From an uncultured Enterobacteriaceae bacterium (GTDB lineage: Bacteria; Pseudomonadota; Gammaproteobacteria; Eutrophobiales; Eutrophobiaceae), in contig CAYOEQ010000001.1 in assembly GCA_964402775.1 (NCBI GenBank), positions 1-56,737 on the forward strand: a DNA stretch of 56,737 bases, in the 5' to 3' direction. The number at the start of each line of letters is the position of its first letter. Position 1 is the stretch's first letter. Of the stretch, positions 2,532 to 20,726 are shown piece after piece. A program made the position numbers and the translations under genes. The notes beneath the pieces were generated by a model. It was given only the letters and a program-made list of their open reading frames with translations. It had not been told where the DNA came from and did not search any database.

Positions 2532-2628
2532 CGGTTATCCTGCATAGGGAAAATGCGGCATTGCATAAATTTCTGCCAGGATAAGGTACTAGAATAAATT
2601 GTGTGGTCTTGTTTCTACGGGGGTCCTT
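2532..2628 (+). promoter_or_regulatory. conserved upstream leader/promoter region of TonB receptor A (copy 1 of 2)
   Basis: About 89 percent identical without indels to 5598-5694, upstream of the paralogous receptor. Contains inverted repeat TTATCCTG...CAGGATAA, conserved in both copies. Confidence 0.5.
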
Positions 2629-4992
2629 GTGGATAAAAAGTATTTATTTGTCATATCCGGTTTCCTTCTCATGCTGGTTTCCACCTTGTCCGGCGCCCAG
2701 GCGGTGCTGGAAGAGGTCGTGGTGACCGCCCAGAAACGCGAACAGTCCATCCAGGACGTGCCTATCTCAATAACGGCCATCAGCGGGGAAAATCTATCTG
2801 CAAATATTGTACAAGATGTTTTTGACCTCCGTGCAACTGTGCCCGCGCTTGAAATCAGGGGTATTGATCCACCCAGCCAGGGTGCGGCTTTTGCCATTCG
2901 TGGATTGGGGTCTTCTGTTTTTAACATGGGGTTTGAACCGACTGTCGGTACTTTTATCGATGGTGTGTATGTGAGTCGCTCCGGCCTTGTGGCGAGCAAT
3001 GACCTGCTAGACCTGGACAGGGTAGAGGTATTAAAAGGCCCGCAAGGCACCCTGTTCGGAAAAAACACCACTGGCGGCGTTGTCCATTTCATTACGAATA
3101 AACCCTCGTTCGATGAGATGGAAGGCTTCGCCGAAGTCACATATCAGGAATATGACCAGGTCAGGGTCAGAGGCGTTTTAAACATGCCTGTGCAGGACAA
3201 TTTTGCTGCTCGTATAGCTGGTTCTTATCACACCGGAGATGGCTATCTTGATAACGCGAATGGCGATGATCTCAATGATCGGGATCGTTTCACCATTCGC
3301 GGGCAGTTATTATGGGAACCGGATGCAGACTTGAGCATACGGGTCATTGCTGATTACAGTGAAGTGGATGAAAACTGTTGCTGGGCAGTAAGACATACCA
3401 ACAACCCGCTTAACCCTGTTGTGAATGCGCCTTTGGCTGCCGCTATCGGCTCCAATCTTATTGATCCTCCCGATGTGGATAATCTCAGAGTAGCCTCTAA
3501 TGGCGATCTGTTATTTGATGCCGAAGACTTTGGTATATCGGGCGAAATCAACTGGCAATTGGGTGATTTAACGCTGACGTCAATCTCTGCATACAGGGAC
3601 TACCAGGATGTGACCATCAAGGACAATGACTTTACCGGTGTGGACATGCTGATAAATACGGATACCCTGCCGGAAGTGAGCATAGTCTCGGAAGAATTCC
3701 GTATTGCCGGGGTGAGCGAGGACATTGGATTTGCCCGGTCGCTTGACTGGGTCGTCGGATTCTACTATGCCAACGAGAAGATTCAGCGTACCCGGGAATT
3801 TGTCTGGGGGTCACAAATTACCGCATTTCCATTTTTCGCTCCTGGTTTGTTCGGCAATGTCCCGGGCCGGGCTTTCTTCGATGAATTCAGCCAGGAGGTA
3901 GACACCGTAGCCGGTTTCGGCCATATCACCATCGACATCAACGATAAACTGTCACTGACTGGCGGCATCCGTTATACCAATGACGAAAAGAGCGCCAGCC
4001 ACAGGGGGCAGACGGGTATTCCGGCAGCGCCATTCAATAACCTGCCGCTTGCAGTAGTGCATGATTTCGATGTTACCAGGGAAGACAGTGAGGCAACAGG
4101 CACTGCCAGTATTCAATACCGGGTAACGGATAATGTGATGGGTTTCTTCACCTACAGCCGCGGTTATAAATCCGGTGGCATCAGCCTGAACAGGGATGCT
4201 GCCGGTAACGCACTGAGCCTGGGCGACCCGTTCCTGGGATGTCCTCCCGGAGGCGCCCCCGTGCCCGCATCTCCATTCTGCGCTTTCCCACCGGCTGATC
4301 CTACATTCGAACCCGAATTTGCCGACCATTACGAAATCGGATTCAAAAGCACATTGTTTGGCGGCCGGATGCGGTTAAATGCATCACTCTGGAAAACAGA
4401 GTTTGAAGGCCTGCAACTCCAGACATTAAGAAGGGACGGCTCTTTTCAGGTCATAAACGTAGCAGGAGCAACTTCCCAGGGTATTGAGGCAGACGTAAAT
4501 CTTGCCGCGACAGATTACCTCGATGTCTTTTTCGCCGTACAGTTTCTGGATGCGGATTTTGCTGATGAAGTTCCGGGGCTCACACCGGGATTGCCGGCGC
4601 TGGGCGGTCAGGATATACCTTTCGCTTCTGACATTACCGGAAATCTTGGCGCTAATCTCAGCTTGCCAATCGGTGATAGTGGCTGGGACTTTTTCCTGAA
4701 TGGCAACCTGTTTTTCCGGACCGAGTATTTTTCCTTCACGGAACCGGACCCTGCGCGCACCCAGGAACCATATGAATTACTGAGTCTTCGGGGTGGCGTG
4801 AATTCACCTGACGGGAAATGGGAACTCGCAGTGTGGTGCCGTAACTGCACCGATGAAAGGTATAAATACAGTGATTTCGCTATTCCTTTTGACGGTGCGA
4901 TACTGGCCTTTCCGGGAACCTCTCTGGGAACCCTCTGGTCACATTACGGCGCGCCAAGATTTGTAGGGGTAACAGGCACTTTCCGTTTCTAA
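2629..4992 (+). CDS. TonB-dependent receptor (paralog A)
   Basis: Signal peptide, then plug N-terminus LEEVVVTAQKREQSIQDVPISI and VEVLKGPQGTLFGKNTTGG. The long beta-barrel ends ...TGTFRF. I placed the start at GTG 2629 by homology with the paralog start; the ORF track begins at 2599. Confidence 0.9.
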   Translation: MDKKYLFVISGFLLMLVSTLSGAQAVLEEVVVTAQKREQSIQDVPISITAISGENLSANIVQDVFDLRATVPALEIRGIDPPSQGAAFAIRGLGSSVFNMGFEPTVGTFIDGVYVSRSGLVASNDLLDLDRVEVLKGPQGTLFGKNTTGGVVHFITNKPSFDEMEGFAEVTYQEYDQVRVRGVLNMPVQDNFAARIAGSYHTGDGYLDNANGDDLNDRDRFTIRGQLLWEPDADLSIRVIADYSEVDENCCWAVRHTNNPLNPVVNAPLAAAIGSNLIDPPDVDNLRVASNGDLLFDAEDFGISGEINWQLGDLTLTSISAYRDYQDVTIKDNDFTGVDMLINTDTLPEVSIVSEEFRIAGVSEDIGFARSLDWVVGFYYANEKIQRTREFVWGSQITAFPFFAPGLFGNVPGRAFFDEFSQEVDTVAGFGHITIDINDKLSLTGGIRYTNDEKSASHRGQTGIPAAPFNNLPLAVVHDFDVTREDSEATGTASIQYRVTDNVMGFFTYSRGYKSGGISLNRDAAGNALSLGDPFLGCPPGGAPVPASPFCAFPPADPTFEPEFADHYEIGFKSTLFGGRMRLNASLWKTEFEGLQLQTLRRDGSFQVINVAGATSQGIEADVNLAATDYLDVFFAVQFLDADFADEVPGLTPGLPALGGQDIPFASDITGNLGANLSLPIGDSGWDFFLNGNLFFRTEYFSFTEPDPARTQEPYELLSLRGGVNSPDGKWELAVWCRNCTDERYKYSDFAIPFDGAILAFPGTSLGTLWSHYGAPRFVGVTGTFRF

Positions 4993-5059
4993 TCCTGGAG
5001 GCGTTAAACATAGCTAAAGTCTATCCGCACAATTCGGTTAACAGGTGGAGTAATTTGAT

Positions 5060-5584
5060 ATGACAGACAGTTATACCTATTCGCGGAGTTTATTTGGTTA
5101 TATATTGATACCCCTGATACTTTTATTTTTTTCCCAGGCAAGCCCGGGTGATGACGCTCGTGCAATACTTTCACCGGAGGAAAAACACAACAAGCTGGTA
5201 ATTGCAAAGGCAATTGTAGATGTCCTTAACAAGGGTCAATTTGAAATAGTCGATGAGTTATTCGCAGATGAACTGGTCGAACATGATCCGTATCAGACTA
5301 AAACGAAGTCCCCTAAAGAGTCCTTCATAGCCGCAGTAAAAACTTTTCGCTCTGCCTTCCCCGATGGCATTATGACTATCGAGAAACAAATTGCCGAGGG
5401 TGACTTTGTATCAACGAGGTGGAGTAAAACCGGCACTCACAAGGGTGAGTTTATGGGGATCCCTCCCACAAACCGCAAAATAACATTTACCGGAATATTT
5501 TTTGACAGGCTTGAAAATGGCAAGATCGTTGAGACTTGGGCAAACTACGACCTTTTCGGATTGTTACAACAAATTAGCGAGTAG
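5060..5584 (+). CDS. secreted SnoaL-like / ester-cyclase-type NTF2-fold protein
   Basis: 174 aa, with SD GGTGGAG upstream. Signal peptide ...LLFFSQASPG. SnoaL/ester-cyclase pattern FRSAFPDG...IAEGDFVSTRW...GTHKGEFMGIPPTNRKITFTGIFFDRLENGKIVETWANYD. Confidence 0.85.
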   Translation: MTDSYTYSRSLFGYILIPLILLFFSQASPGDDARAILSPEEKHNKLVIAKAIVDVLNKGQFEIVDELFADELVEHDPYQTKTKSPKESFIAAVKTFRSAFPDGIMTIEKQIAEGDFVSTRWSKTGTHKGEFMGIPPTNRKITFTGIFFDRLENGKIVETWANYDLFGLLQQISE

Positions 5585-5694: not shown

Positions 5695-8091
5695 GTGGAT
5701 AAAAAGTATCTGTTACCTGTCATACCCGGTTTCCTTCTCATGCTGGTTTCCTCCTTGTCCGGCGCCCAGGCGGTGCTGGAAGAGGTCGTGGTGACCGCCC
5801 AGAAACGCGAACAGTCGATCCAGGACGTGCCTATTTCAGTCAGTGCGCTCAGCAATGAAGACCTGGCGGCTAACCTCGTGACCGATGTCTTTGATTTACG
5901 TCAGGCCGTACCGGCGCTGGAAGTACGAACGGTTGACCCACCTTCCCAGGGTGCGTCATTCTCGTTGCGCGGGCTCGGGACGTCAGTGTTTAACATGGGT
6001 TTCGAACCGACTGTGGCCACATTTATCGACGGAGTCTACCGTAGCCGCAGTGGCCTGACCACCGTGTTTGACCTGTTTGATCTTGACCGGGTAGAAGTAC
6101 TCAAAGGCCCCCAAGGCACCCTGTTCGGCAAGAACTCAACGGCCGGCGTCGTGCATTTCATTACCAAAAAGCCGGAAATGGGTGAGTTTGACATGATGGC
6201 CCAGGCCACCTATGAGGAGCATGATCGCTTCCGTTTCAACGGCATGGTGAACGTCCCCGTGAGTGAGACACTGGCCGCGCGTCTGTCCGCTTCAGTCGGC
6301 ACCGGTGACGGCTGGATCGATAACCTCTCAACCGGTAAGGACGAACGCGACCTGGACCGCTGGACCGTCAAAGGCCAGTTGTTGTGGGAACCCGATGAGA
6401 ACCTGAGTGTGCGTCTGTCCGCAGATTACAGCGAAGTGGATGAGGTCTGCTGCCAGCCACTGGATTTCATTAGCGACCCGTTTGTGCCGCTCGTGAATCT
6501 GCCCCTGGCGCAAGCCAACGGCGCCACTGAGAAACACCCGGCGGACATTGACGACCTTGAATCGGCGTCCAACTTTGGATCAACCTGGGACGCTGAAGAC
6601 CGCGGTTTTTCCGCGGAGGTCAACTGGGATATCGGAAATGTGACACTGACGTCAATCACGGCTTACCGGGATTATGAGGATATCAACATCAAGGATAACG
6701 ATTTCGGTGGCGTAGATATCCTGCGTACACAACAAAACATGCCGGAGATCAGTCTGTTTTCGGAGGAGTTCCGCATCCGTGGCCTGCTTGAGGGTATTCC
6801 CTTTGGGCAATCTCTCGATTGGACACTGGGCATCTACTACGCGAACGAAGATATTGAACGCTCCAATGAATTCATCTGGGCATCACAGATCACGTCGCTT
6901 CCCCAGTTCCCGCCTTTTCTTCCTCCTGGCTTCTTTGGCGGCCAACCCGGACGCGCCTTTTTGGCGAGCTTCAAGCACGAAGACGAGACTTTTGCAATAT
7001 TCGCACACGGAACCCTGGATGTGACTGACAAGCTAGCCATCACCGGTGGCTTCCGCTGGACGCGTGATGAGAAGAAAGCAAGCGCGGTCAATGATCATCC
7101 AGCCAACAATGTCGGCTTTCTCGGTCTGGGGTTTCCTCCTTTCAACTTCAATTCGTTCCCGTTGCCGGTCGTCCATGACTATACGGCAGAGACGGAGAAC
7201 GAGGAACCCACCGGGACTGCGAGTATCCAGTATAACTGGACCGACAACATTATGACTTTCTTTACTTACAGCCACGGCTTCAAGGCTGGAGGCATAAGTC
7301 TCACAAGGGATGCGGCCGGACCGATGATTGCGCTGGGGTCACCCGCAGGATGCCCACCCGGCGGCACTCCGGTTGGCCCGGTGTGCAATTTTGCCGTTGC
7401 CGGAGATCCGACCTTCCGTCCGGAATTTGCAGACCACTACGAGATTGGCGTCAAGTCAACCCTGCTCAATGACCGCTTGCGCCTGAATATAGCGGCATGG
7501 CGTACCGATTTCGAGGATTTGCAGGTCCAGACACTACAGCCGGCTGGTAACTTCGCAGTCGATAATATTGCCGGCGCCCGCTCCCAGGGGGTGGAGGCCG
7601 AGGGTAACCTGCTGGTTACCGATGGGTTGCGGATCAATGCCTCACTACAGTGGCTGGATGCGACCTTTGATAAGGGGATAGGACCGTTGACTCCGGGTCC
7701 GGGATTTATCCCGTTGGGAGGCGAGAACCTGCCGTTCTCCTCGGAATGGACCGGTACTGTGGGCGCCCTCTTTGAACAACCTCTTGCCGATACCGGCTGG
7801 GAATTGTTTCTTGGCGGCAACGTGTTCTTCCGCAGTGAGCAATATAACTTTACCGAACCTCGCTACGACCGCAAATTAAGTGGCTACGAACTCCTTAACC
7901 TGTATGGTGGACTCCGCTCCTCAGACGGCAAGTGGGAGGTGAAGGGCTGGTGTCGCAACTGCGCCGATAAGCGTTATACCTGGAGCCAGTTCACAATCCC
8001 GTTTGATGGAACAATCCTGGGCCATTCAAGCCTCTGGTCGCACCCTGCGCCGCCTCGTTTCATAGGGGGCACAGTCACCCTCCGCTACTGA
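5695..8091 (+). CDS. TonB-dependent receptor (paralog B)
   Basis: 798 aa with a GTG start. It has the same N-terminal plug motif as paralog A, VEVLKGPQGTLFGKNSTAG, and a C-terminal ...TVTLRY. Confidence 0.9.
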   Translation: MDKKYLLPVIPGFLLMLVSSLSGAQAVLEEVVVTAQKREQSIQDVPISVSALSNEDLAANLVTDVFDLRQAVPALEVRTVDPPSQGASFSLRGLGTSVFNMGFEPTVATFIDGVYRSRSGLTTVFDLFDLDRVEVLKGPQGTLFGKNSTAGVVHFITKKPEMGEFDMMAQATYEEHDRFRFNGMVNVPVSETLAARLSASVGTGDGWIDNLSTGKDERDLDRWTVKGQLLWEPDENLSVRLSADYSEVDEVCCQPLDFISDPFVPLVNLPLAQANGATEKHPADIDDLESASNFGSTWDAEDRGFSAEVNWDIGNVTLTSITAYRDYEDINIKDNDFGGVDILRTQQNMPEISLFSEEFRIRGLLEGIPFGQSLDWTLGIYYANEDIERSNEFIWASQITSLPQFPPFLPPGFFGGQPGRAFLASFKHEDETFAIFAHGTLDVTDKLAITGGFRWTRDEKKASAVNDHPANNVGFLGLGFPPFNFNSFPLPVVHDYTAETENEEPTGTASIQYNWTDNIMTFFTYSHGFKAGGISLTRDAAGPMIALGSPAGCPPGGTPVGPVCNFAVAGDPTFRPEFADHYEIGVKSTLLNDRLRLNIAAWRTDFEDLQVQTLQPAGNFAVDNIAGARSQGVEAEGNLLVTDGLRINASLQWLDATFDKGIGPLTPGPGFIPLGGENLPFSSEWTGTVGALFEQPLADTGWELFLGGNVFFRSEQYNFTEPRYDRKLSGYELLNLYGGLRSSDGKWEVKGWCRNCADKRYTWSQFTIPFDGTILGHSSLWSHPAPPRFIGGTVTLRY

Positions 8092-8110
8092 AGACAGTTC
8101 CTCCTGCGGA

Positions 8111-10852
8111 GTGTTGCTCGTGAATCAAGCCCCACAGACAATCCGTCTGTGGGGCTTTTTTGTGCGCGTAACGGTTACCGGCTTCCTGCTGATGATATCG
8201 GTTACGGATCTGTTACAAGCCAGGGGTACAACGGCCTGGGAAACCACTACTGCATTCACCCGGGAACGACTGCATGCCATGGATGCGGCTATCAACCTGC
8301 GCGGAGCTCCTGAACAAGCCTACGAAAAATACATGGCCGTTTTCTCACCATCGGTGCGTGTACGCGGACTGCTGCCGGGTGAGACGACTGACTACGCCGG
8401 GGTCAGGGAATTCTACCGGGGCCTGTTCGGTACATTCGAGGACAGCATACTGGTCAGCGATGAGTTGATTGTTGCGGGACCGATGGCAGCGCAGCGCTAT
8501 CACTCTCTCGGCTACATGACAGGCACCTTCGACGGTGTAACGATGGACCGTAAACTGATTGCGATCCGCGGCCAGACTTTTTTCCGTTTTGACGCAAACG
8601 GGTTGATTGCAGAACGCTGGTCAAACCACGACCACGCCTACAGACTTTCACAGATCAAGGGTACAGCTGCCATGGAAGAAGGCCGGCAACTTGCCGCGCT
8701 GCTCAATGGCGCAGGTTTAACCGAGCAGGCTGTCTATGACCGTCTTGATGATATGACGGCGGCCTTCAACCTTATCCATAACCCGGCAGAGCGTGAAAAG
8801 CGCTTCCTGTCGTTCTTCGACAAGGACGTCAGGGCACATGGTATCAGCCCCGGTCTACGCGGGCTGAGCGAACTCGCAGATTATTACCGGGCGCGCTGGA
8901 AGGCGTTTCCAGACCTGGTCATGAACCTTGAGGCAAAACTCTCCGCCTGGTCCATGGGCGCAGTGCGCTGGCGGGCAACTGGTTCGTCACGGGATCGTTT
9001 CGCCGGTATCGAACCGACCCATGCGCCCGCAGTGCTGACCGGTGAAGCGATAATGCACTTTAATCAAGCCGGTAAAGTAACAGAGATCTGGATCAATGAC
9101 TCAACACCGCCCCAAAAGCCCGGGGATACCGCAACAAGACATGCGTATTTCGGCGATCTTCACGTGCATACCCGCCTGTCCGTGGACGCTTTCGTATTCG
9201 GCGCGCTGGGCACCCCCGACGATGCCTACCGCTACGCACGAGGCGAACCGATAAGGCACGCGAGTGGTAAATTGATCCGCATCAGGACGCCGCTGGACTT
9301 TATCGCGGTGACGGATCATGCCGAATACCTGGGCGTGCTTGTGGCAATGGGAGATCCCGCCAATCCCCTATCCGGACTGCAGCTTGCTGAAGAACTCTAC
9401 AGCAAGGACGAGTCAATGCTGGCGCGGGGGATTGAAAAGCTGAAGGCCAGTATTTTCGGCGGTAAGCCGCTTCCGGAACTGGTCGGGGAAAGTACCATAC
9501 ACTCGTTATGGGAAAAAACCGCCGCGGTCGCGGACCGGAATTACGAACCCGGTACATTTACAACCTTTATCGCCTTCGAGTGGTCTGCGACACCAGAAGG
9601 CGCCAACCTGCACCGTAACGTCATTTTTCAAGGCGGCGCCGAAGCAGTTCCACCCCATCCGGTGTCGTCATTCGACACAATAAAGCCGGAAGACCTGTGG
9701 GAGTACATGGAACAGGCGCGGCGCAACGGTTCGGACGTGATTGCGATCCCGCATAATTCCAACCTGAGTGACGGCCGCATGTTCCCGGTCCTTGATTCCG
9801 GCGGACAACCCATCGACCGGCTTTATGCCGAAATGCGCATCCGCAACGAACCTGTTGTTGAAGTTGTTCAGATCAAGGGTACATCGGAGACGCATCCGGT
9901 ATTGTCGGTTACGGATGAGTGGGCCGACTTCGAACTCCTCGGCGAACTGATGGGAGGCAGCGGCAGGCAAGGTACGGTAACAGGCAGTTATGTCCGGGAT
10001 GCCTACAAAAAAGGGCTGCAGATTGAGCAGACAGCCGGTGTTAATCCATACCTGTTCGGCGTTGTCGGCAGCAGCGATTCACACAACGCCAGCGTGCCGG
10101 TCGAAGAAGACAACTATACCGGGAAGATTGGCGTTGCCGACGCCACCCCTGAGGACAGGCGCAATGGCGGCTCGATAACCAGCCGGAACATCAGGTACGG
10201 TGCGGCAGGTCTTGCCGGCGTCTGGGCCGAGGAGAATACCCGGGAGTCAATATTCGCCGCATTGAAACGCAGGGAAACCTTTGCCACCAGCGGCCCGCGT
10301 ATCCGCGTACAAATGTTCGCGGGCTGGTCTTTTGACAAAATGCTGCATACGCGTACGGACATGCTTCGCACGGCCTATGCCGACGGCGTCCCCATGGGTG
10401 GATACCTGTATCCGACTACAGAAAAATTACAGGTTCCGCGCTTTCTACTTCGGGCTGTACGAGACCCTGACAGTGCCCCTTTGCAGCGCCTGCAGGTAAT
10501 CAAGGGATGGCTGGCAGATGGAGACACCCACGAGAAAGTTTTCGACGTAGCGTGTTCAGACGGCCTCGTACCAGACCCGGTCAACCACCGTTGCCCGGAT
10601 AACGGGGCCATCGTTAATTTGAGTGATTGCAGTATCTCATCGAATAAAGGAGATGCGGCACTCTCTGTTGTCTGGGCCGATCCTGAATTCGACGTCACCG
10701 CACCCGCATTTTATTACGCTCGCGTACTCGAAAACCCCACGTGCCGCTGGAGCACCTGGGACGCTTTGCGCATGGGCTGGGAACTACCGGAAGAAGTGCC
10801 TGCCGTAATCCAGGAGCGCGCCTGGACCTCACCTGTCTGGTATCAGCCATAA
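8111..10852 (+). CDS. exported fusion protein: two SnoaL-like NTF2 domains + DUF3604 (PHP-like metal-dependent hydrolase fold)
   Basis: 913 aa with a hydrophobic N-terminal signal/anchor. Two ester-cyclase-like repeats occupy about aa 45-182 (...IAERWSNHD) and about aa 205-330 (...VTEIWINDS). From about nt 9140 come DUF3604-type motifs DLHVHT, AVTDHAEY, FEWS, IPHNSNLSDG, GSSDSHNA, RRETFATSGPRI and ERAWTSPVWY. An alternative start is GTG 8120, which has a better SD spacing. Confidence 0.85.
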   Translation: MLLVNQAPQTIRLWGFFVRVTVTGFLLMISVTDLLQARGTTAWETTTAFTRERLHAMDAAINLRGAPEQAYEKYMAVFSPSVRVRGLLPGETTDYAGVREFYRGLFGTFEDSILVSDELIVAGPMAAQRYHSLGYMTGTFDGVTMDRKLIAIRGQTFFRFDANGLIAERWSNHDHAYRLSQIKGTAAMEEGRQLAALLNGAGLTEQAVYDRLDDMTAAFNLIHNPAEREKRFLSFFDKDVRAHGISPGLRGLSELADYYRARWKAFPDLVMNLEAKLSAWSMGAVRWRATGSSRDRFAGIEPTHAPAVLTGEAIMHFNQAGKVTEIWINDSTPPQKPGDTATRHAYFGDLHVHTRLSVDAFVFGALGTPDDAYRYARGEPIRHASGKLIRIRTPLDFIAVTDHAEYLGVLVAMGDPANPLSGLQLAEELYSKDESMLARGIEKLKASIFGGKPLPELVGESTIHSLWEKTAAVADRNYEPGTFTTFIAFEWSATPEGANLHRNVIFQGGAEAVPPHPVSSFDTIKPEDLWEYMEQARRNGSDVIAIPHNSNLSDGRMFPVLDSGGQPIDRLYAEMRIRNEPVVEVVQIKGTSETHPVLSVTDEWADFELLGELMGGSGRQGTVTGSYVRDAYKKGLQIEQTAGVNPYLFGVVGSSDSHNASVPVEEDNYTGKIGVADATPEDRRNGGSITSRNIRYGAAGLAGVWAEENTRESIFAALKRRETFATSGPRIRVQMFAGWSFDKMLHTRTDMLRTAYADGVPMGGYLYPTTEKLQVPRFLLRAVRDPDSAPLQRLQVIKGWLADGDTHEKVFDVACSDGLVPDPVNHRCPDNGAIVNLSDCSISSNKGDAALSVVWADPEFDVTAPAFYYARVLENPTCRWSTWDALRMGWELPEEVPAVIQERAWTSPVWYQP

Positions 10853-10878: not shown

Positions 10879-12222
10879 TCAGGACGGAGACTCAGGCACC
10901 AGGTTTTTCCTGGCCAGCCAACGCCGGATGACGCCGTGCCGGTGCTTGTTGATGGGATAGTTGTAGAGTATGAGGGCGCCGGCAAGACCTATGATCCCCG
11001 GCAGGAACAGCCCGACAAAGGCAAGGCCCTGCAGCGCCTCGGCGTCATTCACTCCCGCAGGCTGAAATCCCAGGACTCCCAGCAAAGGCAGCGCAATTCC
11101 TACACCGCCTGCAAACGCTACCTTTACGATAAAATTGTAAACGGCCATGTATATTGCCGCATCATCGCTGCCCCCCTTCATCATGCCGTACTCGATCGTG
11201 TCCGCCACCAGCGCCGGCGGCATCACCCAGATGACCGAGATGATCGGTCCATGCACCAGGGCAACCAGCAACAATTGCGAGAAATCACCGGGGGCCACCA
11301 GCAGGTACAGGGGCTGGACCGCCAGGTAGCCGAACCCGCCCCAGACCAGGGCCCGGTGCCGGCCAAAACGGTTGCCGAACCTGACCCATAACGGCAGGCA
11401 GAGAATGCCGATGACGTACTGTATCAATACGAACTTCAGGAATGCCGAACGAGGCATCTCCAGGATATACTCGAACGTGAATATCAGCGAGGCATTCATC
11501 ACGCTGCCGCCGAGCCAGAGGAAAAATATGCCGATGATCAGGCGCAGGTACGGCTTGTTCCCTGACAGGAGTTTCAACGTGGACATCAGCCCGTGCCTGC
11601 CGGTCTCGACAAACGGGGCTTTCGGCGTAACAGCGGTCGCCATGAACACGGCAAGCGGGATCAAAACCATCAAGAACGCGACATAAACCCACAATATGTC
11701 CCGCAACGCCGGGTTCTCTTCCCTCAGGAACAGGACCGGAAGCAGCGTTGCCAGGATTACCCCAATCATCGTCCCGGTTTCACGGTAGCCGTTGATACGG
11801 GTCCGCGCCGCATAATCCCGGGACAGTTCCGCGCCCCAGGACAAATAGGGGATCTGTACGGTAGTCCAGGCGATATAGAACACCAGCGCCACGACAAACA
11901 GGTAGGTTTTACTCACGCTGACAGGCGGGCTGAGAAACAGGTACAGGGTGACCATCAGCAGGGGCATACCGATGATGATCCAGGGTTTGCGGCGCCCCCA
12001 TCGGCCGCGGGTCTGGTCGGAGAAAAAACCGATCAGGGGGTCCGTAATCGCATCCCAGGCGCGTGCAATGAAGAATATGCCGCCTACCGCGGCCAGTTCC
12101 AGGCCGAGTTCCGCTGCGTAAAACGGCGGCACATAAATGATTAACGGCATTCCCAGCATGGCCAGTGGAACGGCAGGCAACATGTAGGCTATCAGGGAAA
12201 TTCTATCGGTGGCTGATCTCAC
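10879..12222 (-). CDS. MFS transporter, glycoside-pentoside-hexuronide (GPH) cation symporter family
   Basis: 447 aa and multi-TM. GPH-type motif DPLIGFFSDQTRGRWGRRKPW. The GTG start overlaps the upstream stop (GTGA). Confidence 0.85.
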   Translation of the reverse strand: MRSATDRISLIAYMLPAVPLAMLGMPLIIYVPPFYAAELGLELAAVGGIFFIARAWDAITDPLIGFFSDQTRGRWGRRKPWIIIGMPLLMVTLYLFLSPPVSVSKTYLFVVALVFYIAWTTVQIPYLSWGAELSRDYAARTRINGYRETGTMIGVILATLLPVLFLREENPALRDILWVYVAFLMVLIPLAVFMATAVTPKAPFVETGRHGLMSTLKLLSGNKPYLRLIIGIFFLWLGGSVMNASLIFTFEYILEMPRSAFLKFVLIQYVIGILCLPLWVRFGNRFGRHRALVWGGFGYLAVQPLYLLVAPGDFSQLLLVALVHGPIISVIWVMPPALVADTIEYGMMKGGSDDAAIYMAVYNFIVKVAFAGGVGIALPLLGVLGFQPAGVNDAEALQGLAFVGLFLPGIIGLAGALILYNYPINKHRHGVIRRWLARKNLVPESPS

Positions 12223-13718
12223 GTTATCACTCCGTTACTGTTTTCATTCATTCCCGGGGGATTTTCATGCCGCGGCCAATAGGGTTGGATAAATTTCCTG
12301 TAGGGAATGCCTGCAAAGTCAAAGTTGAGCGCGCCGGGGCTTGTTACGTAAATTACATCCCCGGCCAGGGGGGCAAACCCCGCATGGAAGTGCTGGCTTG
12401 ACTTGACGACGACCAGCTTCATCTCCAGCAGGTCGATGCCCAGAACAGTAAATATTTGCGGATGTAATGTCTGACAGCGGTGTTCACTGATAACCAAATT
12501 GACGTTTGCAAGGTCTGCATCCAGCAGCGATACCCAGGCCAGACTTCCGACAGGTTGCCGTCCGCCGCCCGTGTCAGGCTGCGAATAATCCTCCACCAAC
12601 GCACGAACCGCGATTTTCAGTGCAACGGGTTTGCCGGAGACGTTTCCTGTCCTGCCGCCCAACTCGAGGTCCAGCGTTGCGCCCTTGCCTGCACTCCTGC
12701 ATCCGGCAAGCGATTCAGGGTCGCAATAAACACCCGATACCACGTTATCGAATTTCCTGGCCAGGATACGCTCCAGGATGAAAGTGGCATCAGCCGGCGC
12801 CCCACCACCCGGGTTATCCGCAGTGTCCGCCAGCACGATTGGACGCCGGTCCGATGCTTCGGCAAGGTCCAACGCCTCATCAACACCTGGATATTCAGGA
12901 TGCGTCTCATGGCGCATCATCCAGATTTCCGTGCCGAGTTCTACCGCGGTACGGGCGGCCAATGAACTGTCGGCATTCGCATAAACAAGCATCTTGGCGC
13001 CGTTATGCACACTGTCGCCCCAAGGGAAACCGTGACAGAACGATATGGAAATTATCCCGTCTGTTTCTTCCAGGTCACGCAATTTTTCAACAAAACGGCT
13101 CATCGGTTGTTCAGTGGTTTTCCAGGTGCTTATCATCCGGCAATCATGGACACTGCCTGCCGGTTTTAGTTTCCCTTCTGCAATGTCCGTGCAAAGGTCA
13201 AACAGCCTGTCGCCGCACTCCATGATATCCGTATGCGGATACTCCTTGTAGGAAATGAGCAAGTCCGAATTTTCAAGCATCGTCTGAGAAAGCAGGCAAT
13301 GCAGGTCCAGTTCAGCGCCTATCACCGTGCCGGCACCAACTAACTGCCTGATTTCCTTTATCAAATCTCCTTCACAGTCATCACATTCCGTTGCGATCAT
13401 CGCGCCGTGCAGTTGCAACAGCACGACATCTACGGGCATCGCCCGCTTAAGATCTGAAAGTATTTCCCGTTTGAACGCCTCGTATACCGGCATCTCGACA
13501 GGACCCCCCGGCAGGGCCACAGCACCCAGGCTTTCGACTACATCATGTCCCGCCGCGCTTGCCGATTGCCGCCAGCGGGCCAGTACCGGACCAAACAGCT
13601 TGTCCATGCTGCTGGCGTTGCCATGCCATAGACCGAACTGCCTGAATTCATCCATCCCGGTTGGAATGGGTGAGAAAGTATTGGTTTCGGTCAACAGCAG
13701 GGCAATAAAGTATTTCAT
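12219..13718 (-). CDS. M81-family metallopeptidase (MlrC / microcystinase-C-like)
   Basis: 499 aa. N-terminal MlrC-type motif LLTETNTFSP and overall MlrC N+C domain length. 9-nt gap to the upstream gene. Confidence 0.8.
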   Translation of the reverse strand: MKYFIALLLTETNTFSPIPTGMDEFRQFGLWHGNASSMDKLFGPVLARWRQSASAAGHDVVESLGAVALPGGPVEMPVYEAFKREILSDLKRAMPVDVVLLQLHGAMIATECDDCEGDLIKEIRQLVGAGTVIGAELDLHCLLSQTMLENSDLLISYKEYPHTDIMECGDRLFDLCTDIAEGKLKPAGSVHDCRMISTWKTTEQPMSRFVEKLRDLEETDGIISISFCHGFPWGDSVHNGAKMLVYANADSSLAARTAVELGTEIWMMRHETHPEYPGVDEALDLAEASDRRPIVLADTADNPGGGAPADATFILERILARKFDNVVSGVYCDPESLAGCRSAGKGATLDLELGGRTGNVSGKPVALKIAVRALVEDYSQPDTGGGRQPVGSLAWVSLLDADLANVNLVISEHRCQTLHPQIFTVLGIDLLEMKLVVVKSSQHFHAGFAPLAGDVIYVTSPGALNFDFAGIPYRKFIQPYWPRHENPPGMNENSNGVIT

Positions 13719-13727
13719 GGTTAAGCC

Positions 13728-15311
13728 TTACCCTTTCAATACCGCTCTCACAAGCTCTGCCCCTTTCTCACCGATCATGACCACCGTGGCATTGGTATTG
13801 CCGGTCACCAGGGTCGGCATGATGGACGCATCGATGACCCAGAGCCCGTCGACACCCCTGACTCTTAATTCCGGGTCCACAACGGCATCCGCATCAATTC
13901 CCATCCTGCAGGTCCCAACCGGATGGTACATGGGAAATGCCGTATCTTTAACAAACTGCCTGAGTCCTTCACCGGCAAATGCTTCATCATCCGGTTGGCG
14001 CCAACGCGCCAAAGAGCCGGCAAAAGCAGGCTGCTCCGTAATCTTCCTGGCAATCCGGCAGGCGTCGATAAGTTGTTCGATATCATCCCCGGAGGCCAGC
14101 ATGGGATAACGAATCCGGGGTGGGTCCGATGGGTCGGGAGAACGCAATACAACCTCCCCCCTGCTTCGTGTCTGCATCAGACCGACCGCACCGCCGGCAA
14201 TCTTCCGTCTGCTGAGGGCAGCTTTATTCTCGCCGATTTCTATATGGAAAGGCGCCATGGTGACCTGGATGTTGGGCGTCCCGAACTCGTCACGGGTGCG
14301 GGTAAACGCGTGGGCGTGGGCAATCGGCGTTGTCAGCATTCCCTTGCCGCCGACCAGGAACCGGAACAATTCCACCAGGTTATGCAACGGCCCTGTCCCG
14401 CTTCCCAGGGTGTCCCCATTAACGTCGAACGAATAGCGTATACCGGCGTGCTCCTGCAGGTTTTTACCGACGCCCGGCGAATGCGTGATACAGGCGATAC
14501 CCGACCGCTTGAGCGCCGACTCCGCGCCGATGCCGGATAGTTGCAGGAGTTTGGGCGAGGCAATGGCGCCCGCGCACATTATAACGGCGGCCCGCGCCGT
14601 TGCTCTCTCGGGCCGGCTGCTGCCATCTCTTGTAAATTCGATGCCCCCGGCCTTTTTACCATCAAACAGGACCCGGGTAACCCGGGTCCTGAGTTGCACG
14701 CGCAGGTTGGCGCGCTTACGCAACGGATGGAGGTACGCCGTCGCCGCAGACTCGCGCCAGCCCCTGCGCTGGGCCACCTGGACATAATCGACTCCCTCGT
14801 GGTCCGCCCCGTTCAGGTCGTCGCTCCTGGGGATGCCTGCCTGTTGCGCCGCCTTGACCCAGGCATGGGTCAGGGGGCTGTGCACGTTCAAATCCTCCAC
14901 GGAATGGGGTCCCCGGCCGCCGCGCCATTCATCCTGGCCGCGCCGGTTGGTTTCCATGCGCCTGAAATACGGCAACACCGAAGCGTAATCCCAGCCTGCG
15001 CAACCCAGGTCCGACCAGCGGTCGTAATCATCCCTGTGGCCGCGGATAAACATCATCCCGTTGATGGCGCTGCCCCCACCCAGGCGCAGGCCGCTCCACC
15101 AGGTATCCACCTTGCCGTCACGGGACGGGTCCGGTTCGACCTCGTACATCCAGTTAAACCGGGGACTGTAGACCGCGGCGCCGCTGGCCGCGGGGACGCG
15201 GCTGAAAGGATGCCTGTCGCTGCCGCCCGCCTCTATCAGCAGAACGGCTAAGGAAGGGTCTTCCGACAAACGCCCTGCCACGACGCAACCGGCCGTCCCT
15301 CCTCCAACCAC
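13728..15311 (-). CDS. GMC-family FAD oxidoreductase (choline/alcohol dehydrogenase-like)
   Basis: FAD fold GGGTAGCVVAGRLSEDP plus GMC-type regions throughout. The frame stays open upstream to 15344 and encodes ...INDYDVIV before the GTG, so the real start may be ATT at 15330-15332. Confidence 0.9.
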   Translation of the reverse strand: MVGGGTAGCVVAGRLSEDPSLAVLLIEAGGSDRHPFSRVPAASGAAVYSPRFNWMYEVEPDPSRDGKVDTWWSGLRLGGGSAINGMMFIRGHRDDYDRWSDLGCAGWDYASVLPYFRRMETNRRGQDEWRGGRGPHSVEDLNVHSPLTHAWVKAAQQAGIPRSDDLNGADHEGVDYVQVAQRRGWRESAATAYLHPLRKRANLRVQLRTRVTRVLFDGKKAGGIEFTRDGSSRPERATARAAVIMCAGAIASPKLLQLSGIGAESALKRSGIACITHSPGVGKNLQEHAGIRYSFDVNGDTLGSGTGPLHNLVELFRFLVGGKGMLTTPIAHAHAFTRTRDEFGTPNIQVTMAPFHIEIGENKAALSRRKIAGGAVGLMQTRSRGEVVLRSPDPSDPPRIRYPMLASGDDIEQLIDACRIARKITEQPAFAGSLARWRQPDDEAFAGEGLRQFVKDTAFPMYHPVGTCRMGIDADAVVDPELRVRGVDGLWVIDASIMPTLVTGNTNATVVMIGEKGAELVRAVLKG

Positions 15312-15356
15312 AATTACGTCATAGTCGTTAATCGCACCACCCCTTTAATGATATCC

Positions 15357-15382
15357 GGGGTCAGAGCAATTGCTCTGACCCC
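15357..15382. repeat. REP-like element family 1 (26-nt perfect palindrome)
   Basis: GGGGTCAGAGCAATTGCTCTGACCCC, 5 nt downstream of the stop of the NTF2 gene on the minus strand. Confidence 0.85.
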
Positions 15383-15387
15383 AATAG

Positions 15388-15870
15388 TTACGGCGTATTA
15401 TTATTCCCCATATCCAGTATCACCTTCCATGCCCCATCGGCCTGGCGCTCCCATAACAAAATGTACTTGCCTTGCCGCGGGGCTGCCTGGTTCTCAACAT
15501 CTCCACCCTTGAGAACAAAGTTTGCGACAAAGTTGCCGCGGGTCAGGGCCCAATCGCCCTCCGTTATGACGGAATCGACGGTTACGTCCAGCTGCTCGAT
15601 ATCGAAAGTGCCGTGGACGGTCTGCGCGAACCCGCGCAGCGCCTGCTTGCCTTCCAGCGCCGGTAAGGTGTTGTGCATGCCGACCGCGTCATCGGCGAAG
15701 ACCCCCAGCCAGCCCTCGGTATCGCCTGTTTTATAAGGCTCGATGTATTCATTGAGCACCAGTTGCTCGAAATCCGGCGGGGATGCTGCCTGCCGGTCCT
15801 GCCTGGAACAAGCGTTTGCGAACAATACCAGCGCAACCAGGAGTATATGGAGATAGTTATTCATGGGCAT
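15388..15870 (-). CDS. exported NTF2-fold protein (DUF4440/SnoaL-like; possible lipoprotein)
   Basis: 160 aa. The signal peptide ends ...LVLFANAC, a non-canonical lipobox. NTF2-like pattern with a C-terminal ...WKVILDMGN. Confidence 0.7.
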   Translation of the reverse strand: MPMNNYLHILLVALVLFANACSRQDRQAASPPDFEQLVLNEYIEPYKTGDTEGWLGVFADDAVGMHNTLPALEGKQALRGFAQTVHGTFDIEQLDVTVDSVITEGDWALTRGNFVANFVLKGGDVENQAAPRQGKYILLWERQADGAWKVILDMGNNNTP

Positions 15871-15879
15871 ATTCCTAAG

Positions 15880-17409
15880 TCAGTGTCCATGTTTTGCGAG
15901 ATAGTCCTGCTTGATGAGTTGCTTCTTTACCTTGCCGGAATCTTCACGCGGCAGGCGGTCAATGAAACTATATATCCTGGGCACCTTGAAATCCGCAAGC
16001 CTGGTCTTCAGGTATGCGGCAACTCTTTCTCCGTCTGCGACCCCCTTCTGCTCGATTACCGCCACGAGCTTTTCGCCGAATTCCGCATCGGGTATCCCGA
16101 ATACGACACAATCGGCAACATCCTCCATGGCAACCAGTTCCGCCTCGATCTCCGCCGGGTAGATATTCACGCCCCCGGATATCACCATGTCCGACTGGCG
16201 CGATGACACATACAGGAACCCCTCCTCGTCCAGGTAACCGATGTCTCCCGTTACCAGGAACCCGTTCTGCTGCAAGGCTGCACTCCTCTCGCCATCATTG
16301 AGATAGGAAATACAATGGGTGCCTTCGTGTTTCACGCAGATCACGCCTTCATCGAGAGCCCTGCGCCTGTTTCCGTCCCCGTCGCGAATTTCTATCTCGA
16401 CACCGGGCGCAGGACGCCCCACTGTGCCCTCGTGTTCCAGCCATTCGGCAGGGGTGCTACAGGTGATAATACCTGTTTCCGTCATGGCGTAATATTCATA
16501 AATCACCTTCCCCCACCAATCGATCATGCTTCTTTTTACAGCCGCCGGACAGGGCGCCGCGCCGTGGGTGACGTGGACCAGGGAATCAAGCCGATACCTG
16601 TTTCTGACACTGTGCGGCAAATCCAGCAACCGGACAAACATGGTCGGCACCAGGTGCAGGTGGGTTATTTCATACTGCTCTATCATGGCCAGCAGGTCTT
16701 CCGCATTGAAACGCGCCGCCAGGACCAGCGTACCACCGGATTGCAGGACCATGTTGGCGTAACCGTTGGGCGCGGAATGGTACAGGGGTCCGGTCATTAC
16801 CGAACGGATCGGGGTTCGGTCGAAGCCCCAGGCATGCCTTGTCCTGGCGCTGATCCCGGCTGCTATTTCAGGGGTTACGTTGTTACGCAGCACCGCTTTG
16901 GGCCTGCCGCTGCTGCCGGAGGTATAAAACAGGGGCGGTCTGAAATTCTTATCCGGATCCGTATGCGGCCTGCTCTCTTCCATCCAGTCATCCCAGTTCA
17001 GGAAACGGGGATCGCGTATATCCTCTCCAGGTTTGGCTCCGTACCCCTGCAGGATTTCGGCTGGCGGGTTTACCACGATCACCGGGCTGTCTTTTATAAC
17101 CTCCACCAACTCTTCAGTGAGCAAATCGGCATGGACAATTACGGCCCCGGCCCGGCAATCGGCCAGGATGAAATCGACCTCCGCCGGTTTCAGGCGCCAG
17201 TTGACCGGCACGACGTCGAAACCGAGGTAGTGAGATGCCTCATGGATTATGAAGTAGGGAATATCGTTACGTAATATGACCGCAACGGCGTCATTCTCCC
17301 GGATGCCCAGGGACTGCAAGCCGGCAGCGACGCGTCGTGCTGCAGCGTCAATGTCCGAGACAGAGCAACTTCGCTCGCCGAAGATCAGGGCGCCCTGGGG
17401 CAATTTCAC
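15880..17409 (-). CDS. AMP-dependent acyl-CoA synthetase/ligase
   Basis: AMP-binding motif YTSGSSGRPKAV, plus GDIGYLDEEGFLYVSSRQSDMVISGGVNIYPAEIE. The GTG start overlaps the upstream stop (GTGA). Confidence 0.9.
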   Translation of the reverse strand: MKLPQGALIFGERSCSVSDIDAAARRVAAGLQSLGIRENDAVAVILRNDIPYFIIHEASHYLGFDVVPVNWRLKPAEVDFILADCRAGAVIVHADLLTEELVEVIKDSPVIVVNPPAEILQGYGAKPGEDIRDPRFLNWDDWMEESRPHTDPDKNFRPPLFYTSGSSGRPKAVLRNNVTPEIAAGISARTRHAWGFDRTPIRSVMTGPLYHSAPNGYANMVLQSGGTLVLAARFNAEDLLAMIEQYEITHLHLVPTMFVRLLDLPHSVRNRYRLDSLVHVTHGAAPCPAAVKRSMIDWWGKVIYEYYAMTETGIITCSTPAEWLEHEGTVGRPAPGVEIEIRDGDGNRRRALDEGVICVKHEGTHCISYLNDGERSAALQQNGFLVTGDIGYLDEEGFLYVSSRQSDMVISGGVNIYPAEIEAELVAMEDVADCVVFGIPDAEFGEKLVAVIEQKGVADGERVAAYLKTRLADFKVPRIYSFIDRLPREDSGKVKKQLIKQDYLAKHGH

Positions 17410-18419
17410 GCAAGCAATCCCCGGTCCAGTCCGTCCCGGCCGCGCCTGATCAAATCGGCGAAGCCGCCAATATCGATGTTTGAACCACAGACTATGAGTG
17501 CGACCCGTTTGCCCCTGAGCCGGTCTGCAAGAGGCCCGAATGCAGCGGCCGTGGTGGCGGCCCCGGCAGGTTCGACCGCCAGTTTCATGTGCTCAAACAG
17601 GATGGCGGCCGCGGCTGCGAGCTCGTCGTCCGATACCAGGACCAGGTCATCCAGCGAACGCTCGCACATCGCATAGCAGTAGTCGGCGGTGAACGGCGGG
17701 GCCAGGCTGTCGGCTATCGTCGACAGTTCGGTGAGACTCTGCGCCGAACCCGCTTCCAGGCTTTTCTTCATCACGGCGGCCCCTTCGGGTTCAACCCCGT
17801 AAACCTTGCAGCCCGGATTCAGCAACCCGGTAACCACCCCGACACCGGAACACAACCCGCCGCCGCCGATGGGCACGACCACCGCATCCAGGTCTGCCAC
17901 CGCAGCGTGCAACTCAAGGCCACAGGCGCCGGCGCCTTCCGTTACCCGCTTGCCTTCGAACGGGTGGATAAAGGTTCGCCCCTCTTTTTCTACTATTTCC
18001 TCGACCATCGCAAACCCCACAGGCCCGTTTTCCGCTATCAGTATCTCTGCGCCCAGGCTGCGGGCGATCTCAACACGGGCCGGGTTGGCGCTGGCCTGCA
18101 TGACCACTTTTGCACTTGTATCGACACAGCGCGCCGCGTAGGCCGCGGCAATGGCGTGGTTGCCCGAGCTCATCGCGGTAATGCCCCGGACAAGCTGGCC
18201 GGGCGACAAGGCCAGCGCATTATTGACCGCGCCGCGCACCTTGAACGTACCGGTTCGCTGGAACAACTCCAGCTTCAGGGATAACTCCGTGTCCGCGCCG
18301 AGCCGGGAAGCGACCGTATCCCCCTCCCAATGAAAGACCGGTGTCACCCGGGTATAAGGTTTCAGTCTCTCGGCGGTTAAACGGAATTCCTCCAGGGTGG
18401 GCGGATTGTGCTCATTCAT
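17406..18419 (-). CDS. PLP-dependent threonine/serine dehydratase-like enzyme (PALP family)
   Basis: PLP-lysine motif TGTFKVRGAVN, plus SSGNHA and PIGGGGLCSG. 337 aa. Confidence 0.85.
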   Translation of the reverse strand: MNEHNPPTLEEFRLTAERLKPYTRVTPVFHWEGDTVASRLGADTELSLKLELFQRTGTFKVRGAVNNALALSPGQLVRGITAMSSGNHAIAAAYAARCVDTSAKVVMQASANPARVEIARSLGAEILIAENGPVGFAMVEEIVEKEGRTFIHPFEGKRVTEGAGACGLELHAAVADLDAVVVPIGGGGLCSGVGVVTGLLNPGCKVYGVEPEGAAVMKKSLEAGSAQSLTELSTIADSLAPPFTADYCYAMCERSLDDLVLVSDDELAAAAAILFEHMKLAVEPAGAATTAAAFGPLADRLRGKRVALIVCGSNIDIGGFADLIRRGRDGLDRGLLA

Positions 18420-18448
18420 TCGAAAATGCCGTCACGCAGTAAAGATCA

Positions 18449-20593: not shown

Positions 20594-20726
20594 AGTTAAA
20601 CCTCGACAATTCTGTTTTGCCCAGTCACGGGAGGCATTCCCGGCCGACGAATATTTTTTTCACACTGAAACCGGACTTTATTACATAATGACGCTTATTG
20701 ACAAACCTGATCGCAAAACTTCAGCC

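Follow-up and report, generated by a model that had tools for sequence, protein, structure and literature searches.

What does it mean that one reading frame of an uncultured Enterobacteriaceae bacterium joins two SnoaL domains to a DUF3604 domain? The frame (positions 8111 to 10852, plus strand) lies on contig CAYOEQ010000001.1 of assembly GCA_964402775.1, the 56,737 nucleotides of which we refer to as the window. A preliminary description had read the gene as an unusual fusion of tandem ester cyclase-like NTF2 domains with a PHP-like hydrolase and had taken it to support a functional connection between the two families at this locus. We found that the fusion is genuine and rare and belongs to one narrow clade of marine Gammaproteobacteria. 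The constant partner of the tandem-SnoaL protein is a TonB-dependent receptor, not DUF3604.

The fused protein and its two halves

The frame consists of 913 codons and a stop and is open throughout, with no internal stop. Its product is best read as an exported periplasmic protein that comprises a predicted Sec leader, a compact pseudo-dimeric NTF2/SnoaL pair, a short linker, and a complete DUF3604 (Table 1). When each was scanned alone, residues 40 to 185 scored 40.8 bits and residues 196 to 335 scored 48.5 bits against SnoaL (PF07366; cutoff, 28.4), in agreement with the two N-terminal domains proposed at the outset. The two are 26% identical to one another (E = 2e-14), and both resemble, as had also been noted, the stand-alone SnoaL protein encoded at 5060 to 5584, with 32 to 34% identity over the last ~70 residues (E = 4e-9 and 2e-12). 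The Pfam DUF3604 family (PF12228) matched residues 342 to 913 over profile positions 3 to 591 of 591 (E = 2.4e-217; 723.5 to 725 bits). This match starts at nucleotide 9134, close to the earlier estimate of ~9140, and the motifs that had been listed for a full-length DUF3604 (DLHVHT, TDHAEY, IPHNSN, SSDSHN, and ERAWTSPVWY) are all present in the translation.

A search of 5.8 billion proteins returned six clusters with the SnoaL-SnoaL-DUF3604 architecture (P0002 to P0007), one of them 99% identical to the window protein and five ~74 to 76% identical. The fused homologues align end to end, and the 74 to 76% identity extends over the full length. The same uninterrupted frame is found in five independent assemblies (L008, L009, L019, L020, and L022), some on contigs of 1.3 to 3.5 Mb, which confirms the initial impression of a continuous gene with no in-frame stop and no artificial junction. 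For pairs of orthologues, the ratio of nonsynonymous to synonymous substitution rates (dN/dS; Nei-Gojobori method) was 0.11 to 0.19 for the tandem-SnoaL part and 0.09 to 0.20 for the DUF3604 part, compared with ~0.8 to 1.1 for the 12-residue linker in most computable pairs (one pair gave 2.5, and one was not computable). Both halves are thus maintained, with a free linker joining them. The rarity of the fusion is evident from an exhaustive HMMER scan of 1.84 billion representatives clustered at 50% identity, in which only one (P0006, 908 amino acids [aa]) of 18 matches below 1e-30 had the length of the fusion; the remaining long matches lacked DUF3604 and had as many as six SnoaL repeats. The architecture is already in public databases, annotated "DUF3604 domain-containing protein," and literature searches returned no published description of a tandem-SnoaL-DUF3604 protein.

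On the evidence of searches and alignments, the N-terminal half is an orthologue of a free-standing, secreted tandem-SnoaL protein of ~320 aa. A search with residues 39 to 338 retrieved ~75 clusters of such two-domain proteins at 38 to 56% identity, none with DUF3604 and some named "predicted ester cyclase." A free protein of this kind, encoded at L010:15929-16915, shares 49% identity with the tandem-SnoaL half over 287 aa (E = 1e-97). Canonical Sec signal peptides were found in nearly all free members, and a lipobox was found in one, indicating that the family is exported. Exported architectures with multiple SnoaL domains are widespread outside this family as well; P0222 and P0280 have four to six tandem SnoaL domains followed by type IX secretion tails.

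Conservation in the tandem-SnoaL half was assessed with alignment A4, which holds 68 sequences at 32 to 75% identity to the query and also served for structure prediction and the genome scan described below. (A MAFFT alignment of fused, free, and DUF3604 sequences, A2, was discarded because 61 free tandem-SnoaL rows were stretched across DUF3604.) Domain 1 has an invariant polar set, Y74, Y102, Y130-H131, R153, W170-S-N172-H173-D174-H175, and R178, as numbered along the open frame from 8111; in the numbering of P0122, which is lower by 38, these are Y36, Y64, Y92-H93, R115, W132-S-N134-H135-D136-H137, and R140. Domain 2 is without the His/Arg set of domain 1 and has W-R, T, and N-D-S at the aligned positions, and the columns conserved at ≥90% number 33 in domain 1 and 15 in domain 2. 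The AlphaFold model built from A4 is a compact two-domain structure (predicted local distance difference test [pLDDT], 95.8; predicted template modeling score [pTM], 0.92), in which each half follows the helix-helix-strand-helix-strands order and forms an alpha+beta cone. In Foldseek comparisons, the whole chain matched Lsd19 and MonBI-MonBII best (E = 6e-14; TMq, ~0.57; identity, 12 to 13%; root mean square deviation [RMSD], 5 to 6 Å), and the single domains matched SnoaL2, AclR, ChaU, IdmH, TsrD, and ketosteroid isomerase (KSI) best, with TMt values of 0.8 to 0.87 to SnoaL2, AclR, and ChaU. PDB profile matches over domain 2 were to SnoL, AclR, and an ester cyclase. Domain 1 is likely to be an active or binding pocket, with domain 2 probably serving mainly as its structural partner. 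The catalytic residues of SnoaL itself (1sjw) are Asp121 with His107, His119, and Gln105; domain 1 has a different invariant set, which domain 2 lacks.

In the DUF3604 half, a 74-sequence alignment identified H348, H350, D399-H400, E487, H498, H545, H592, and D653-x-H655 (numbered from GTG 8120) as near-invariant, together with four Cys in the region of the C-terminal beta-sandwich, and all of these columns are present in the window protein. The set includes, at the level of sequence, motifs of the PHP metal-ligand type, namely, an N-terminal HxH (H348/H350), a central H400, E487, H545, and H592, and a C-terminal DxH (D653/H655). The conserved His, Asp, and Glu residues would fit a multinuclear metal site, and the Cys residues would fit a disulfide-bonded periplasmic protein. 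In the full-length AF2 model (alignment A3), the pLDDT is >90 over residues 340 to 910, and the fold of this half was matched by Foldseek to BVU_3505 (3e38; E = 2e-7), TM0559 (2anu; E = 4.5e-4), and the PHP domain of RNase AM (7ug9; E = 1.5e-3), each with a probability of 1.0. The C-terminal sandwich gave weak matches to Ig-like folds. The PHP-like character that had been proposed for DUF3604 is therefore backed at the level of the fold. At the level of sequence, no Pfam PHP family (PF02811) was detected at E ≤ 0.1, and no PDB match was obtained by phmmer or a profile search.

A receptor-linked cluster and the history of the fusion

A scan of named genomes with A4 recovered 30 tandem-SnoaL loci, found in gammaproteobacterial metagenome-assembled genomes, Chromatiales, Thiotrichales, Novosphingobium, and Roseateles/Paucibacter. 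This shows that the cluster of receptor and tandem SnoaL spans Gamma-, Alpha-, and Betaproteobacteria; it is also carried by the cultured Novosphingobium sp. B 225. Under a strict automatic rule, 21 of 27 loci have a TonB receptor gene immediately upstream; inspection by hand raises this number to 24. DUF3604 was far less regular. Not counting the window, the 31 non-redundant loci include 5 with a fused DUF3604, 1 with a stub, and 1 (L010) in which it is encoded separately; in the other 24, the fetched flank contains no DUF3604. The functional connection first drawn from the fusion is thus partly supported: the fusion is real and conserved, both of its halves are under purifying selection, and L010/L011 provide a Rosetta stone link, but a connection between the two families in general is not supported.

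The general link is further weakened by the DUF3604 copies found elsewhere. Besides the fused copy, the source genome encodes three that are full length and one that is divergent, none of them beside a SnoaL gene (the nearest SnoaL-like open reading frame to the copy on C12 is ~4.7 kb away), and it contains no SnoaL-DUF3604 neighborhood outside the present locus. All ten tandem-SnoaL-cluster genomes searched likewise have several other full-length DUF3604 copies elsewhere, and at least one close relative (L018) has since lost the DUF3604 half by deletion. Two of the paralogs in the source genome have neighbors of their own. A HupE_UreJ_2 metal permease gene (E = 1.6e-42; C12:7833-8831, corresponding to L002:490-1488, minus strand) lies directly downstream of one, and the other is located between a TonB receptor gene and a gene that, judged by sequence, resembles a pyrroloquinoline quinone (PQQ)-type quinohemoprotein dehydrogenase (C7:8073-14427).

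The gene order in relatives runs APS kinase, thiolase-like, DUF35, TonB receptor, X, a convergent operon from MFS_2 to AraC, and a divergent BBE/FAD_binding_4 oxidase, the last of which is Tat-exported. X is the fusion in the window, L008, L009, L019, L020, and L022; tandem SnoaL alone in L015, L016/L017, and L023; and tandem SnoaL followed by a DUF3604 stub of 45 residues in L018/L021 (the same place, on the complete 4.34-Mb chromosome OZ220696.1). The stub gene (L018:8001-9143) ends in ...YARGEPGKK and still has the HxH motif. Intact fused genes have a 3' end that matches the stub gene in its final 18 nt (GAACCCGGCAAAAAGTAA) and in the downstream spacer; the stub therefore arose by an in-frame deletion of ~530 codons between two GAACC repeats.

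In the tandem-SnoaL tree, a single clade (support, 100/99) takes in every fused row, the stub, and five free rows. The best tree nests free forms among the fused ones, and monophyly of the fused rows was recovered in 0% of bootstrap trees, yet it was not rejected by the approximately unbiased test (P = 0.165). In the DUF3604 tree, the fused domains form a monophyletic group (support, 96), the closest to which are proteins in which DUF3604 is fused to cytochrome c. Such proteins, with a leader and a dihaem cytochrome c (two CxxCH motifs), are encoded at L010:10001-12370 and L011:2412-4781 (P0009; also P0008 and P0011). L010 and L011 have the same gene set as the window cluster, with tandem SnoaL as its own gene after the receptor and DUF3604 as a separate gene, which adjoins a single SnoaL_2/DUF4440 gene. 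The simplest history would be one fusion in a narrow clade, rather than several independent fusions, which used the DUF3604 subgroup already belonging to the cluster and replaced its leader or cytochrome module. One loss of DUF3604 is proven (L018), and further losses are probable from the position of the free forms. A third kind of DUF3604 fusion was seen at L049:2582-5929, where an exported 1,115-aa protein combines an adenosine-deaminase-like domain (PF00962; E = 1e-23) with a full DUF3604; it is an orthologue of a paralog in the source genome (C79:7677-9848) that is cut by the contig end.

The window carries an additional unit of receptor and single SnoaL (2599 to 5584) that is also present in L019 and is absent from L009, L020, and L022. 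Single-SnoaL homologues were observed in L019, L030 to L032, L042, and L043, and in L030 to L032 the single SnoaL is instead placed after tandem SnoaL. The single SnoaL thus recurs as an accessory of the cluster and can change its place. No polyketide biosynthetic context was found in the window, which has no open reading frame longer than 913 aa and in which the neighbors are receptors, transporters, and catabolic-type enzymes. Toxin-antitoxin genes (PIN, Phd/YefM, and VapB-type) have been inserted between the receptor and tandem-SnoaL genes, and just after the latter, at L016:7477-9185 and L017:2600-4573.

Table 1. Features of the fusion gene and of its surroundings, in window coordinates
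Feature	Position	Strand	Basis
Second TonB-dependent receptor, part of the extra receptor and SnoaL unit	2599..4992	+	Pfam, synteny
Stand-alone secreted single-domain SnoaL	5060..5584	+	E = 2.7e-37
TonB-dependent receptor (Plug and beta-barrel), directly upstream of the fusion gene, 28-nt gap	5695..8091	+	Pfam
Whole open frame of the fusion (910-aa product from the probable start)	8111..10852	+	Translation
Predicted Sec signal peptide, MNQAPQTIR / LWGFFVRVTVTGFLLMISV / TDLLQA, cleavage before RG	8120..8221	+	Predicted from sequence
Intrinsic-terminator-like hairpin: 13-bp stem, 5-nt loop AATCC, T run (stem-loop 8127-8157)	8127..8161	+	Scan and folding
SnoaL/NTF2 domain 1, residues ~42-183	8234..8659	+	40.8 bits, model pLDDT 95.8
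SnoaL/NTF2 domain 2, residues ~205-330	8723..9100	+	48.5 bits, PDB profile matches
Interdomain linker, ~11-12 residues, STPPQKPGDTAT, variable among orthologues	9101..9133	+	Alignment, dN/dS
Full-length DUF3604: PHP-like barrel, then C-terminal beta-sandwich from ~nt 10440	9134..10849	+	Pfam, model, alignment
Companion genes: MFS_2, MlrC/M81, GMC oxidoreductase, exported NTF2 (DUF4440), acyl-coenzyme A (acyl-CoA) ligase, pyridoxal phosphate (PLP) enzyme, DUF2817, and AraC (minus strand); divergent BBE/FAD_binding_4 oxidase (plus strand)	10879..22208	- and +	

The true start of the fusion gene is probably GTG 8120, because homologues open with MNQAPQT and the sequence GGAG lies 8 nt ahead, at 8108 to 8111. 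This is a small correction to the preliminary description, which had taken the frame from 8111, and it gives a product of 910 aa. Two internal starts 3' of the hairpin, GTG 8162 and ATG 8192, were rejected as the main start because they would leave several orthologues (e.g., P0005) without a workable signal peptide. The predicted leader of the fusion protein is without a lipobox, and in the alignment the leaders of close homologues end in AQA/ED.

The hairpin occupies codons 3 to 14 of the fusion gene, 36 nt past the receptor stop codon, and has a predicted folding energy of -38.4 kcal/mol (z = -5.95). It is kept in ten related loci, whether the gene is fused or free, and its loops are variable. 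L015 shows an A-U to G-C double change, and L023 shows G.U wobbles. The conserved hairpin accounts for the invariant peptide QAPQTxRLWGF, which it encodes. The hairpin probably limits read-through from the receptor gene. In L016/L017, where the ATG of the tandem-SnoaL gene has become ACG, the hairpin is retained.

Candidate functions of the fusion protein

We think it somewhat probable that the fusion protein carries out a periplasmic, two-step processing of a compound brought in by the receptor. The TonB receptor would import the compound, and the pocket of SnoaL domain 1, with its Tyr/His/Arg/Asn/Asp set that includes W-S-N-H-D-H, would bind it or convert it by cofactor-free acid-base chemistry. 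At a multinuclear metal site, the tethered DUF3604 would then hydrolyze a bond of the ester type (phospho-, sulfo-, or carboxyl-ester), and the MFS transporter would carry the product into the cell, where CoA activation and further oxidative breakdown would follow. Fusion of the two halves would provide coexport, 1:1 stoichiometry, and proximity for what may be an accessory step, rather than the core, of the pathway.

Several points weigh against this proposal. For neither the DUF3604 proteins nor the present tandem-SnoaL family did literature searches bring up a known activity, ligand, or metal; no functional study of DUF3604 or of a SnoaL-TonB pairing was found, and the two papers that mention DUF3604 do not characterize it. 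DUF3604 is related to PHP proteins by fold only, the Pfam and PDB sequence and profile searches having given no PHP match. In the full-length model, the N-terminal part has a pLDDT of <55, so that any channeling between the halves would be conjectural, and catalysis by the SnoaL domains, as opposed to mere binding, is putative. A cytochrome c fusion in a sister lineage hints that DUF3604 might have a redox-linked role. Finally, most versions of the cluster have no DUF3604, close relatives have lost it, and each genome searched has several other copies; thus, the two halves may act on unrelated substrates.

This last point leads to the alternative that fares best, although we regard it as unlikely: that the halves are tethered but independent. 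The fusion would then be a near-neutral accident, caused by deletion of the gap and leader between two neighboring periplasmic genes, the halves would have different substrates, and DUF3604 would be one more copy of a multicopy hydrolase. Such independence would be consistent with the 24 of 31 tandem-SnoaL loci that lack DUF3604, the deletion in L018 and the probable losses in further nested free forms, the additional full-length copies in each of the ten genomes, the unconstrained linker, and the fusion of DUF3604 to unrelated partners (cytochrome c and the adenosine-deaminase-like domain). It is harder to reconcile with the persistence of the fusion through a dS of ~1.1 to 1.7 with a dN/dS of ~0.1 in both halves. 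Moreover, the DUF3604 subgroup found in the fusion sits in the same type of cluster when it is unfused, which argues for a shared pathway rather than a random juxtaposition.

Rather less probable, in our view, is that tandem SnoaL is a nonenzymatic module that binds a hydrophobic compound and escorts it from the TonB receptor to DUF3604 (in cis) or to the MFS transporter. The NTF2 cone commonly serves as a fold for binding small molecules, tandem SnoaL is exported and coupled to a TonB receptor (upstream in 21 to 24 of 27 loci), and domain 2 has few conserved polar residues, all of which would suit an escort. However, the ionizable cluster of domain 1 (Y, Y, Y-H, R, N-H-D-H, and R) is invariant in 68 sequences, which is more typical of catalysis, and the nearest structural matches (Lsd19/MonB, SnoaL2, ChaU, and KSI) are all enzymes.

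We consider it improbable that DUF3604 is a redox-linked metalloenzyme, or an electron transfer docking module, that works with a periplasmic BBE/VAO-type flavoprotein and in which tandem SnoaL has taken the place of cytochrome c. The fold matches of DUF3604 are all to PHP phosphoesterases, its conserved H/D/E set is consistent with a multinuclear site for hydrolysis, and most DUF3604 proteins have no cytochrome domain. These observations outweigh, in our judgment, the N-terminal dihaem cytochrome c of its closest relatives and the Tat-exported FAD_binding_4/BBE oxidase of the cluster, even though p-cresol methylhydroxylase and other flavocytochrome pairs provide an established precedent. That an assembly error or frameshift joins two separate genes is negligible as an explanation, since nothing was found in its favor (the sole broken forms are P0124, a frameshifted-looking fragment, and short contig-end fragments) and it is contradicted by the identical continuous frame of five independent assemblies, 1.3- to 3.5-Mb contigs among them, by the same architecture in P0002 to P0007, and by purifying selection on the domains that flank the junction.

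Beyond the two-step periplasmic processing proposed here, a wider picture is conceivable, which we put forward as doubtful but worth stating. The TonB receptor and secreted tandem SnoaL might constitute an undescribed, widespread pathway that starts the periplasmic breakdown of an imported natural product with a cofactor-free NTF2 enzyme, and DUF3604 might be a plug-in esterase of the PHP type that became fused to whichever periplasmic partner it serves (tandem SnoaL, dihaem cytochrome c, or an adenosine-deaminase-like domain). If this were true, these fusions would offer a first practical way into the substrate class of DUF3604, a large family that has several copies in each TonB-receptor-rich proteobacterial genome examined and for which we know of no characterized member; to our knowledge, the secreted tandem-SnoaL family is equally unstudied. 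The fusions to SnoaL, cytochrome c, and the deaminase-like domain tie DUF3604 to a defined periplasmic setting and gene cluster, and the cluster provides specific proteins to work with, as well as a host in culture (Novosphingobium sp. B 225). The fusion alone does not reveal the substrate, and because the link between SnoaL and DUF3604 is lineage specific and dispensable, we view it as a useful clue and not as a major surprise.

Relation to known systems

By its domain matches, the fusion protein belongs twice to PF07366 and once to PF12228, and we do not count it among the PHP or the Lsd19-type enzymes. Its closest counterparts are the free tandem-SnoaL proteins, such as P0143 ("MAG: ester cyclase [Chromatiales bacterium]") and the product of L010:15929-16915, which are orthologous to residues ~40 to 330 at 38 to 56% identity. 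They share with the fusion protein the signal peptide, the invariant residues, and the place behind a TonB receptor; they differ in that they end a few residues past domain 2, with no DUF3604, and none has been characterized. The SnoaL family (SnoaL, 1sjw; SnoaL2, 2gex/8r2b; AclR, 2gey; ChaU, 8kaa; IdmH, 6hnn) is a further point of reference, since both domains pass the PF07366 cutoff and reach a TMt of up to 0.87. In contrast to these cyclases and hydroxylases, the present protein is tandem and exported, is found in a catabolic or transport context, and has in domain 1 a motif of its own, RYH ... WSNHDH.

The polyether epoxide hydrolase/cyclases Lsd19 (3rga/4rzm) and MonBI-MonBII (9kw6/9kw8) likewise use two NTF2 domains as one unit (E = 6e-14 to 2e-11; TMq, 0.53 to 0.60). 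The likeness is one of fold only, however, with 12 to 13% identity, an RMSD of 5 to 6 Å, and a different packing of the domains. Lsd19 and MonB are cytoplasmic Streptomyces biosynthetic enzymes with no leader, TonB receptor context, or PHP domain, and no biosynthetic genes were found near the present locus.

For the C-terminal half, the PHP phosphoesterases (3e38, 2anu, and 7ug9) have a fold that the DUF3604 model matches; the DUF3604 sequence begins its conserved set with HxH and has a late DxH, with conserved His and Glu residues between the two. DUF3604 differs from them in being about twice as long, with large insertions, in its Cys-rich C-terminal sandwich, and in its periplasmic location, and the searches detected no similarity to them at the sequence level. 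The nearest relatives of this half are the cytochrome c-DUF3604 proteins (P0008, P0009, and P0011), whose DUF3604 is 56 to 64% identical to that of the window and which are encoded in the same type of cluster, with tandem SnoaL as a separate gene in L010. Like the adenosine-deaminase-like fusion, they have another N-terminal periplasmic module in place of a plain leader, the position that is occupied by tandem SnoaL in the window protein.

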